Positions 2,649 through 5,183 of a stretch of 5,183 bases of DNA are shown here, in pieces. This DNA comes from a virus (Duplodnaviria > Heunggongvirae > Uroviricota > Caudoviricetes), in the IMG/VR virus record IMGVR_UViG_2778261571_000011, positions 1 to 5,183 of that record, one strand, 5' to 3'. The number at the start of each line of letters is the position of its first letter. Positions within the stretch are counted from its first letter, which is position 1. The position numbers and the translations under genes were made by a program. The notes under the pieces were generated by a model, which searched no databases, was not told where the DNA came from, and saw nothing but the letters and a program-made list of their open reading frames with translations.

Positions 2649-2962
2649 CGATCACAAAACAACGTGTAGAAGAAATCATATCCCGTATTGAAATGTATGG
2701 GCATGGTGCCGGGTATACCGCTGATGAGGTTTATGACCTTGCTGTACTGGCGCTGAATTTATCAAATATCGCAAAACTCAAGCGATACGAGCTTGATATG
2801 GATGGTTGTGACTCGTTCGGTCAGGATTGTGGCGCTGACATGACTGAAGATTCTGATGGCGATTATGTCCTGTTTGATGACGTGGTTAAGTTGTTTGAGT
2901 TTGATACAACCACTCAGAAGATAGAAAGCCCAGCAAAGGAGGCAGCCAGTGAGCGAGATTGA
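2645..2962 (+). CDS. Small strongly acidic protein (105 aa); N-terminal module shared with the DUF551 protein
   Basis: ATG 2645 overlaps the upstream stop (ATGA at 2645-2648); AGGTGA Shine-Dalgarno at 2633-2638. By my count about 24 Asp+Glu against 10 Lys+Arg, with an Asp-rich stretch (DMDGCDSFGQDCGADMTEDSDGDYVLFDD). The N-terminus [23 protein letters not shown] parallels MTTITKERLLTIKQWRETYGPGS of the 4124..4657 protein. Confidence 0.6.
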   Translation: MTITKQRVEEIISRIEMYGHGAGYTADEVYDLAVLALNLSNIAKLKRYELDMDGCDSFGQDCGADMTEDSDGDYVLFDDVVKLFEFDTTTQKIESPAKEAASERD

Positions 2963-3356
2963 CTATCAGGTACTGCGTGAGGCGGCAGAGAAAGCCGGTG
3001 AAGATAAGTGGCAGGCTAAAAAAATAAATGGTGATTTTTTCGTTATTCGTCACGGTAGTTATACAAGACAGCATGGCTACACATCGTATCAACCCATTGC
3101 GGAGATTGATTGTAAGCAAGTCCGGGATTTTGTTGCCAAGGCTAATCCGGCTACCGTGCTGGAATTACTGGATGAACTGGAAGAAGCAAAAAAGCGCATT
3201 GCAGAACTGGAAGCGCGGGAAATACTGCTCCCGGAACGTAGCAGCATGCTTCATAGAACAGATTTTCACGAGGATTACCAAACGGTAATGGCATACAAAG
3301 TTTCTGAGGTCATCGCTGCAATCCGCGCCGCTGGCATTCGCATCAAAGGAGAGTGA
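2949..3356 (+). CDS. Probable ead/Ea22-like family protein (135 aa)
   Basis: GTG start at 2949 with AAGGAGG at 2936-2942, 6-nt spacing; overlaps the upstream gene by 14 nt. N-terminus MSEIDYQVLREAAEKAGEDKWQA and coiled-coil LLDELEEAKKRIAELEARE resemble Ea22-like prophage proteins from memory. Confidence 0.55.
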   Translation: MSEIDYQVLREAAEKAGEDKWQAKKINGDFFVIRHGSYTRQHGYTSYQPIAEIDCKQVRDFVAKANPATVLELLDELEEAKKRIAELEAREILLPERSSMLHRTDFHEDYQTVMAYKVSEVIAAIRAAGIRIKGE

Positions 3357-3357
3357 G

Positions 3358-4113
3358 ATGATTCACTACCACGGTGGGCCTATTACTCCTGATACGTGCG
3401 CAATGAGAGCATGGAAAGGGCGACATGCGTTTATCAGTTTTGCGCATTCAGGCCAGATCAATCTCGCGGCTGAATACTGTCAGTCGTTCGCGCTGGACAA
3501 CGGTGCATTCACCGCCTGGAAAGCAGCTGGCAAAAACAAAATCGACTGGAGCGATTACTACGAGTTTGTCGCTCGCTGGAAGAATCACCCAGGATTCGAT
3601 TTTGCCATTATCCCTGATGTTATTGATGGCGGAGAGGAAGAAAATGATGCGCTTCTGAATGAGTGGCCTCACGGAAAACTAGCTGGCGTTCCAGTGTGGC
3701 ACATGAATGAAAGTGACGAGCGATTTATTCATTTGTGCAATGAGTTTCCGCGAGTGGCTATCGGTAGTTGTGGCGACTATGACGTAAAGCGCCCAACTCT
3801 TGCGGTAGCCAGAATGAAAGACCTGATTCGTCACATTGTTGATGAGCATGGTCAGCCGGTTACGAAACTACATGGATTGCGCATGTTAAATCCGCTGATA
3901 TTCACAAAATTACCCTTAGCCAGCGCAGATAGTACGAACGTCGCTCGAAACATCGGTATTGATAAAGCCTGGTCTGGGGCTTATGCACCTGCAAGTAAAG
4001 AGACACGCGCAGCATTAATGGTAGAACGGATTGAGGCACACAATAGCCCTGGTTCTCTTGCGTATTGTGAACAACGCGACCGCTTTGAAATGCAATTGCA
4101 ACTAGCAGTTTAA
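3358..4113 (+). CDS. Candidate TGT-superfamily (DpdA-like) transglycosylase, 251 aa; otherwise hypothetical
   Basis: AGGAG Shine-Dalgarno at 3347-3351, 6 nt before ATG 3358. An ordered motif series matches the TGT TIM-barrel active site: LDNGAF (aa 46-51, cf. TDSGGY), IIPDVIDGG (aa 84-92, cf. MAFDEC), IGSCGDY (aa 135-141, cf. AVGGLAVGE), LHGLRML (aa 171-177, cf. LMGVGKP), and ADSTNVAR (aa 190-197, cf. DMFDCVLPTR with the same Asp-to-Arg spacing). No Cys/His zinc motif. Motif-level inference only. Confidence 0.6.
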   Translation: MIHYHGGPITPDTCAMRAWKGRHAFISFAHSGQINLAAEYCQSFALDNGAFTAWKAAGKNKIDWSDYYEFVARWKNHPGFDFAIIPDVIDGGEEENDALLNEWPHGKLAGVPVWHMNESDERFIHLCNEFPRVAIGSCGDYDVKRPTLAVARMKDLIRHIVDEHGQPVTKLHGLRMLNPLIFTKLPLASADSTNVARNIGIDKAWSGAYAPASKETRAALMVERIEAHNSPGSLAYCEQRDRFEMQLQLAV

Positions 4114-4123
4114 GGATTAACAA

Positions 4124-4657
4124 ATGACCACTATAACCAAAGAGCGACTGCTGACAATCAAGCAGTGGCGCGAAACATACGGACCTGGTAGCAACGTTGT
4201 ACTGCCAGCAGAAGAAGCGGAAGAACTGGCGCGGATTGCACTGGCATCGCTGGAAGCAGAGCCGGTGGCGTGGAAGGCAACCTTCACGCAAATTGACAAT
4301 GAATATAATACGTTCACTGCTCTGTATTCTGACAAAGCAGAAGTCGAACGGTGGGTGCGACTGCATGAAATAGCTGACTTTCGGGCAGATATAACACCGC
4401 TTTATACAGCCCAACCAGCGCCGGTAGCTCCGGATGGTTGGATAAGCTGTAGTGAGCGAATGCCTGAAAAGAACCAGAACGTGCTTATTTCGGTGAATTT
4501 CGATAGTGATCTGGTTGAGCCGCTAATATGCTCCGCACGCTATACCGGAAGCACCTTTCGGCGCGGAGATGCAACGATTAAGCCGGGTAATGGTATTGAG
4601 CAAGCAACTCACTGGATACCTCTACCGGAACCGCCTCAGGAGGTTAACCGTGGCTAA
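4124..4657 (+). CDS. DUF551 domain-containing phage protein (177 aa)
   Basis: AAGGA Shine-Dalgarno at 4112-4116 overlapping the upstream TAA stop, 7 nt before the ATG. The C-terminal region WISCSERMPEKNQNVLISV...ATHWIPLPEPPQ matches the hallmark of DUF551 from enterobacterial prophages. Confidence 0.75.
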   Translation: MTTITKERLLTIKQWRETYGPGSNVVLPAEEAEELARIALASLEAEPVAWKATFTQIDNEYNTFTALYSDKAEVERWVRLHEIADFRADITPLYTAQPAPVAPDGWISCSERMPEKNQNVLISVNFDSDLVEPLICSARYTGSTFRRGDATIKPGNGIEQATHWIPLPEPPQEVNRG

Positions 4658-4719
4658 CCTGCAACTTGCCGTAAAAGGTGAATAACAATCCTCGCACTCG
4701 CGTGGATTTCTTTTATCTG

Positions 4720-4745
4720 AACTCGCTACGGCGAGTTTTGTTTTA
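4720..4745 (+). terminator. Candidate Rho-independent terminator ending the recT-to-DUF551 operon
   Basis: Perfect 7-bp stem AACTCGC / GCGAGTT (4720-4726 and 4731-4737) with a TACG loop, followed by the T-rich tract TTTGTTTTA. It lies 63 nt after the DUF551 stop. Confidence 0.45.
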
Positions 4746-4757
4746 TGGAGATGATAA

Positions 4758-4925
4758 ATGCACTTCCGAGTCACAGGTGAATGGAATGGAGAGTCATTCA
4801 ACAGGGTTATCGAAGCAGAGGACATCAACGACTGCTATAACCACTGGATGATATGGGCGCAGATAGCGCATGCAGACGTAACCAATATTCGAATTGAAGA
4901 ACTGAAAGAACACAAAAACGCCTGA
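4758..4925 (+). CDS. Small ORF, 55 aa (MHFRVTGEWNGESFNRVIEAEDINDCYNHWMIWAQIAHADVTNIRIEELKEHKNA); absent from the ORF track
   Basis: ATG at 4758 preceded by GGAG at 4747-4750, 7-nt spacing. It has no internal stops and is bracketed by two hairpin plus T-tract structures. Coding status is uncertain. Confidence 0.4.
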   Translation: MHFRVTGEWNGESFNRVIEAEDINDCYNHWMIWAQIAHADVTNIRIEELKEHKNA

Positions 4926-4937
4926 TGGCGGTTTTTT
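4914..4937 (+). terminator. Weaker terminator-like hairpin spanning the small-ORF stop codon
   Basis: AAAAACGCC (4914-4922), TGAT loop, GGCGG (4927-4931), then TTTTTT (4932-4937). Only 4 G-C pairs plus a bulged A-T extension; it might instead be part of an att arm. Confidence 0.3.
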
Positions 4938-4947
4938 ATTGCCTGAT

Positions 4948-4963
4948 TTGCAGGTTCGATTCC
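4948..4963 (+). other. Orphan tRNA T-arm fragment TTGCAGGTTCGATTCC; candidate integrase crossover core (att core)
   Basis: GCAGG (5-prime T-stem), TTCGATT (canonical T-loop) and CC, with no complementary 3-prime T-stem, acceptor stem or CCA following. From memory the 16 nt equal the matching stretch of E. coli tRNA-Arg(CCU) argW, the KplE1 integration target. Confidence 0.45.
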
Positions 4964-4982
4964 CTATTCGGAGATAGCACTC

Positions 4983-5183
4983 ATGCAACACGAACTACAG
5001 CCTGATTCACTGGTTGATTTGAAATTCATCATGGCTGATACTGGCTTCGGTAAAACCTTCATCTATGACCGGATTAAGTCCGGCGACCTGCCAAAAGCCA
5101 AAGTTATCCACGGACGCGCAAGATGGTTATATCGTGACCATTGTGAATTCAAAAATAAGCTCTTAAGCCGCGCTAATGGGTAA
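4983..5183 (+). CDS. torI: Winged-helix excisionase / recombination directionality factor (Xis/TorI-like, 66 aa)
   Basis: GGAGA Shine-Dalgarno at 4970-4974, 8 nt before the ATG. The core TFIYDRIKSGDLPKAKVIHGRARWLY parallels lambda Xis (TVRRWVRECRIFPPPVKDGREYLF). The 66-aa length and N-terminus MQHELQPDSLVDLKF match my recollection of TorI of prophage KplE1; the symbol is tentative. Confidence 0.75.
   Translation: MQHELQPDSLVDLKFIMADTGFGKTFIYDRIKSGDLPKAKVIHGRARWLYRDHCEFKNKLLSRANG

Follow-up and report, generated by a model that had tools for sequence, protein, structure and literature searches.

The window analyzed here is the whole 5,183 nt stretch of viral DNA, and it represents part of the early-left (pL) operon of a lambda-like, P22-family prophage, in which all of the real genes lie on the + strand. 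The genes include those for RecT (306–1217), a Gp157-like protein (1195–1683), an Ea22-like protein (2949–3356), a phrog_887 protein (3358–4113) and a DUF551 protein (4124–4657; Pfam DUF551, E = 1.2e-20; phrog_60). The DUF551 gene is the last before a short cassette consisting of a 55-aa ORF (+ strand, 4758–4925; phrog_676) and three terminator-type hairpins, which is followed by the gene for an excisionase (recombination directionality factor) of the TorI/HkaC type (+ strand, 4983–5183; phrog_66), the product of which is 100% identical to both K-12 TorI and HK620 HkaC. The prophage type carrying the cassette is HK620/Sf6/N7-like and belongs to the P22 family; across the segment 4600–5183 the identity to Escherichia phage N7 (Lederbergvirus) is 96.4%, and parts of this segment recur in 335 phage records as well as 3174 of the 5426 complete E. 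coli genomes. An antiterminator gene and a nut site are not within the window. We also note that the 251-aa ORF at 3358–4113 matches phrog_887 'queuine tRNA-ribosyltransferase' (E = 3e-103; no Pfam or NCBIfam match), and this part of the early-left operon may encode a DpdA-like enzyme.

Judged by its sequence, the 55-aa ORF is orf55 of lambda (locus tag lambdap35), an uncharacterised early gene that has been part of the lambda sequence ever since this was first determined. The translation of lambda 29118–29285 (complement) has the same residue at 50 of 55 positions (91% identity), and the phrog_676 profile matches across residues 1–55 of 55 (E = 8.1e-37); no family was found in Pfam and NCBIfam. 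A preliminary description of this region had credited the ORF with its own ribosome-binding site, and it does have one: the Shine-Dalgarno sequence GGAG at 4747–4750 is 7 nt 5′ of the ATG at 4758 and is kept in all copies of the leader. The frame ends with TGA at 4923–4925.

There are several indications that orf55 is a real, conserved protein gene. First, none of 44 distinct orf55 alleles contains an internal stop. Second, the variable sites among the alleles number 11, 2 and 17 at codon positions 1, 2 and 3, and the changes comprise 16 synonymous and 16 non-synonymous substitutions (16/32 synonymous versus 19% expected, p = 7.5e-5). Third, an exhaustive profile search recovers full-length relatives of 51–57 aa with about 45% identity and a conserved core. 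It is the combination of synonymous enrichment, stop-free alleles (n = 44) and relatives at about 45% identity that argues for the protein-coding status of orf55. An observation on database entries should be mentioned here. The orf55 and torI genes share one reading frame (they are 225 nt apart) and are split only by TGA codons at 4923 and 4944, and the database proteins include Orf55-TorI fusions with Trp at both TGAs, of which P0093 (141 aa) is one; these read-through fusions are most likely the product of gene calling with TGA as Trp.

The diverged relatives (about 45% identity) are always found in early operons of lambda-like prophages, and their site in the genome varies. Those in L091–L096 occupy the beginning of the early-left operon, directly 3′ of the N gene (PF25694/PF11438 in L091 and L092), and the relative in L102 is in a similar place after a repressor gene, where no N gene is called. 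Others are just 5′ of xis/int (L090, L097 and L099) or 3′ of the replication genes (L100). Given these varied positions, the gene has no fixed association with either the att site or the excisionase. The diverged L089, L091–093 and L094 likewise have a terminator with the stop codon in its loop and a 5′ arm that encodes C-terminal Ala residues, relatives in which the gene overlaps the next gene have no such stop-in-loop terminator, and those in L097, L099, L100, L101 and L102 are without an adjacent terminator, so the hairpins are not obligatory for orf55. In L094 and L102, a separate hairpin of the terminator type lies immediately 5′ of the Orf55 relative. There is no copy of orf55 in K-12 KplE1, where ypdJ is unrelated and only a degenerate hairpin is present before torI.

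The three hairpins are all on the + strand and are the counterparts of the predicted lambda terminators t3, t4 and t5, which are found at equivalent positions; we refer to them as hairpins 0, 1 and 2. Hairpin 0 (t3; 4687–4716) has a stem of nine pairs including one mismatch (4687–4695/4700–4708), an ACTC loop and a T-rich tail. Hairpin 1 (t4; 4719–4745) has a stem-loop at 4719–4738 (8 pairs, TACG loop) and a T-rich tail, TGTTTTA, reaching 4745; it folds at -11.9 kcal/mol with z = -4.5 relative to dinucleotide shuffles, and is the sole + strand terminator-like site that the pattern scan reports in the whole 5.2-kb window. Hairpin 2 (t5; 4914–4937) has a core stem of 4919–4922/4927–4930 (CGCC-TGAT-GGCG) with an A5/T6 extension; the orf55 stop codon lies in its 4-nt loop and the last sense codons of orf55 form its 5′ arm. 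The preliminary description had placed an intrinsic terminator at 4720–4745, where a terminator-type hairpin does lie. Its two bracketing hairpins are both present, as is the stop codon (4923–4925) within the loop of the second (4919–4930); it missed a third hairpin with a T-rich tail at 4687–4708, and its second hairpin is weak in the window (z = -1.2).

Two of the three hairpins are present in the window as weaker, minority alleles (G4703T, and C4918A with its neighbors). Hairpin 0 folds at -9.6 kcal/mol in the window versus -13.1 in lambda because of a T.T mismatch at 4692/4703; position 4703 is G in 51 of 53 variants and T, as in the window, in two. Hairpin 2 folds at -7.7 kcal/mol in the window, no better than shuffles and too short for the pattern scan, whereas for the usual allele, which lambda, P22 and HK620 carry (GCCGCC-TGAT-GGCGG), the value is -13 kcal/mol; only four G-C pairs precede the T6 tract in the window as opposed to 5–6 in lambda. 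Fifteen of 53 variants have the A at 4918, together with A at 4914 and 4917, and the window has all three. These substitutions at 4914–4918 change the C-terminus from HQAA, as in lambda, to HKNA and create the A5 tract, with which hairpin 2 looks bidirectional.

The hairpins have the geometry of intrinsic terminators (a G+C-rich stem, a short loop and a U-tract), and termination at them is predicted only. Terminator-pattern counts are not above chance (1 versus 1.2 expected and 4 versus 4.9 expected from shuffles), and the case for the hairpins depends on fold z-scores and conservation and not on these counts. The variation among copies fits the stems: at 4734 in hairpin 1 an A/G polymorphism keeps the pairing (U-A or U.G), and apart from this the changes are mostly in loops. 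There are only wobble-preserving changes and no double compensatory changes, which reflects the similarity of the relatives (at least 91% identical). Hairpins 0 and 1 (4687–4738) have a common core, CTCGC-N4-GCG(G/A)G, and on this similarity may represent a tandem duplication. The possibility that hairpins 0 and 1 pair with each other in the manner of an attenuator was rejected, as no competing structure is more stable.

There are precedents for these assignments. Bloch et al. [quoted passage not shown] Sequences homologous to hairpin 2 (94–95% identical) are annotated as terminators in HK140 and P22, as a rho-independent terminator on the sense strand in the HK140 record, and on the opposite strand in the P22-pbi record as t'I, '3'-end of aI RNA'. 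Nothing relevant on a lambda terminator named 'tL4' at the location of orf55 came from a literature search.

The gene and its hairpins constitute a mosaic cassette (4679–4945) that is 91–98% identical among lambda, HK022-like, Stx and P22-like phages; the window copy is about 94% identical to lambda DNA and 97.6% identical to phage N7. Across 80 viral contigs and the reference phages, homology to the window starts at 4679–4683 and stops at 4937–4945, and these edges define the cassette as leader, gene and third hairpin. The edges coincide with hairpins across many phages. The leader (+ strand, 4679–4757) is the left part of the module and contains the two tandem terminator-type hairpins and the Shine-Dalgarno sequence. 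It is found 5′ of orf55 in lambda, HK140 and N7, 5′ of unrelated ORFs in VT2-Sakai, Sf6 and Salmonella phage 118970_sal4, and alone in many Salmonella and Stx phages. At the other end, a remnant composed of the last ~45 nt of orf55 and hairpin 2 is present in P22, HK620 and Sf6, and hairpin 2 adjoins four different recombination modules (those of lambda, of the HK620/Sf6/window type, of P22, and of the HK140 type).

Lambda has the same arrangement as the window, with the same gene, two upstream hairpins, ribosome-binding site and downstream hairpin with the stop codon in its loop, and in both genomes orf55 is the last gene before the excisionase gene (xis in the lambda pL operon). The differences are in the alleles, with hairpins 0 and 2 weakened in the window, and in the neighbors, the upstream gene being DUF551 in the window and ea8.5 in lambda, and the downstream module being of the torI/HK620 type in the window and, in lambda, xis with an internal pI. 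P22 and HK620 differ from the window in keeping only the last ~45 nt of orf55, and in P22 the terminator is assigned to the opposite strand. The cassette has something in common with phage morons, units of promoter, gene and terminator that are inserted between genes, in that orf55 is a small accessory gene with its own terminator at varying genome positions; morons have their own promoter, however, and none is found 5′ of orf55 in the window, where the upstream elements are terminators.

Immediately downstream of hairpin 2, the sequence at 4938–4976 (+ strand) aligns with a promoter annotated 'phage integration' in the HK620 record. The cII site annotated there maps to TTGC-N5-TTGC at 4939–4951, identical in the window and one base short of the lambda consensus, TTGC-N6-TTGC. 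A sigma-70 promoter scan of 4938–4976 gives nothing above threshold, as is expected for an activator-dependent promoter. Overlapping this segment at 4948–4963 (+ strand) is a 16-nt exact copy of the T-arm of K-12 tRNA-Arg argW, TTGCAGGTTCGATTCC, which is conserved in HK620, Sf6 and K-12 KplE1; argW is the integration target of the HK620/KplE1-type integrase family. The 16-mer provides the second TTGC of the annotated cII site, and about 1e-4 such matches are expected by chance.

An att core had been placed in front of the excisionase gene, and here the preliminary description does not stand. The HK620 attP core, CTGCAGGGGACACCAT, is absent from the window (the best match has 5 mismatches in 16), and nowhere in the window is there identity with the argW 3′ end at the crossover (CTGCAGGGGACACCA); what was taken for the core is probably the argW T-arm copy, TTGCAGGTTCGATTCC, at 4948–4963. 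In HK620 and K-12 KplE1 the attP core is ~75 nt 3′ of the excisionase gene, and the real core lies beyond torI, outside the window. Within the tRNA gene itself (K-12 L104, 155–184), TTGCAGGTTCGATTCC overlaps the attP/attB core CTGCAGGGGACACCA by one base, and in HK620 (L002) the 16-mer is at 1571–1586 and the core at 1880–1895, some 290 nt further on and past the excisionase gene. From this placement, the excisionase gene looks to be set between the two halves of a 30-nt argW 3′ fragment.

How might the cassette be expressed? The early-left operons of lambda contain terminators throughout, and polymerase passes these once N or an analogue has modified it; reaching lambda xis/int requires either N antitermination of pL or the cII-dependent pI. 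In the window, the three hairpins sit directly 5′ of torI and are the sole such cluster in 5 kb. A promoter scan of the + strand from 4000 to 5183 finds no promoter-like site, and thus none belonging to orf55; with terminators as its upstream elements and no promoter of its own, orf55 depends for expression on read-through of the operon. We consider it likely that the orf55 cassette, with its counterparts of t3, t4 and t5, is transcribed by antiterminated read-through from pL, that it stops unmodified polymerase before torI, and that a cII-type promoter offers a separate route. In this scheme, transcription from pL would reach the cassette after induction or infection, and polymerase modified by a phage N-type antiterminator would pass all three terminators and transcribe orf55 and then torI. 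Unmodified polymerase from stray upstream promoters would halt at the cassette, leaving torI silent in the lysogen, and the cII-type activated promoter directly 3′ of hairpin 2 would give separate access to the recombination genes during lysogenisation. Orf55 itself is a small, acidic protein made early, and binding to a host factor is its most plausible role. For the torI type of module, Panis et al. 2010 (PMC2951348) report low-level constitutive production of the integrase and find that expressing torI is enough to bring about excision; they propose the RDF gene as the target of excision control. Since expression of torI is enough for excision, halting unmodified polymerase in front of it is a plausible role for the terminators. 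The preliminary description had reasoned that transcription arriving at the excisionase gene from upstream would need antitermination or a separate promoter, which is sound, and the alignment of 4938–4976 with the HK620 promoter annotation is in keeping with it. Its term 'operon end' is misleading, and an internal terminator cluster of the early-left operon is the better description.

Four other proposals bear on the hairpins or the gene. The first is that the hairpins are mainly conserved junction ('boundary') sequences for the swapping of modules by homologous recombination, that termination is incidental, and that there is no consequence for torI. Lambda-like boundary sequences or mosaic joints, as described in the HK620 and Sf6 records, are short, highly conserved non-coding module borders and in this respect resemble the cassette edges. 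The occurrence of the leader before unrelated ORFs, and alone in many Salmonella and Stx phages, is what would be predicted, as is the ~45-nt remnant of orf55 with hairpin 2 in P22, HK620 and Sf6. The module edges are exactly at the hairpins, and the Sf6 record calls the adjoining stretch a boundary sequence, although this element ('bsq2') extends over the promoter and excisionase segment on the right-hand side of hairpin 2 and does not include the hairpins. Such a role is nonetheless compatible with terminator function, and a canonical stem and U-tract are kept in three separate hairpins. Moreover, a terminator is at the same place relative to the stop codon in relatives at about 45% identity, where the DNA homology needed for recombination is gone. 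We think it unlikely that the hairpins serve mainly as junctions.

A second proposal concerns the Orf55 protein and its translation. Orf55 is acidic, 55 aa in length, and has a predicted beta-beta-alpha-beta fold (AlphaFold2 pLDDT 89.8). Donaldson 2021 (PMC8614690) speculatively modelled it as an analogue of T7 Gp2 and a possible RNA polymerase modulator, which would bind the beta-prime jaw and inhibit sigma-70 holoenzyme. T7 Gp2, an inhibitor of E. coli RNA polymerase, is likewise a small acidic beta-beta-alpha-beta early protein, and it is the best match to the Orf55 model in a Foldseek comparison with the PDB (4lk0_M; E = 0.038, TM ~0.6, 25% identity). The published resemblance is weak. A genome-wide CRISPRi essentiality screen (PMC10695390) did not cover lambdap35. 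The location of the stop codon in the loop of hairpin 2, with the last sense codons as its 5′ arm, raises the further idea that a ribosome finishing orf55 would cover the hairpin, such that translation suppresses termination and acts as a translational gate on excision; access of unmodified polymerase to torI would then depend on the translation of orf55. Family members with about 45% identity share the stop-in-loop layout. Orf55 might in addition be an early protein that binds host RNA polymerase, as Donaldson 2021 proposed. This reading as a whole seems to us distinctly improbable.

Third, hairpin 2 could act mainly on the minus strand, or in both directions, ending an antisense transcript from the recombination module in the manner of the P22 aI RNA. 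The t'I annotation in the P22-pbi record is of this kind, and in the window allele the minus-strand hairpin is followed by TTTTTGTGTT. In the commoner allele, by contrast, the minus-strand tail, CTTGGTGTTC, is a poor U-tract, the HK140 record annotates the hairpin on the sense strand, the promoter scan finds no promoter-like site on the minus strand of 4926–5183, and the torI module has no relation to P22 eaC, where the aI promoter is located. We regard a chiefly antisense role as very unlikely. Finally, the preliminary description had offered a small RNA locus or an att-site arm with a fortuitous 55-aa frame as alternatives, and these are effectively refuted: the tRNA-like 16-mer (4948–4963) is nearby and there is weak Rfam similarity to STnc130 (E = 0.12) and STnc420 (E = 0.17), well short of the gathering scores, but the Rfam matches cover the terminator stem only, the frame is open in 44 of 44 alleles with synonymous enrichment and a confident structure model, the protein family is conserved to about 45% identity at other genome positions far from any att site, and the attP core is absent from the window. 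At a permissive E-value no Rfam family reaches threshold (best E = 0.12–0.5; 30.4 bits versus 55, 24.6 versus 70, and 21.3 versus 50). A small RNA locus was dropped because the Rfam matches are sub-threshold and confined to terminator stems, and an att arm was rejected with the absence of the attP core.

The terminator-controlled micro-gene that the preliminary description had also suggested was essentially right, in that a conserved gene, lambda orf55, is flanked by terminator-type hairpins. The cassette is an ordinary and previously described feature of lambda-like phages, and its recognition here is a rediscovery in a related prophage: the gene was known in the lambda sequence, the hairpins as predicted terminators (2014), and the antitermination and cII route likewise. 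The use of the analysis is in assigning an uncharacterised prophage stretch to a known cassette, in correcting the reading of an att core, and in matching the cassette edges to hairpins. For the argW-integrating phages, the terminator cluster 5′ of torI may help to keep excision off in lysogens, which, if true, would be a modest refinement of what is known of their control.
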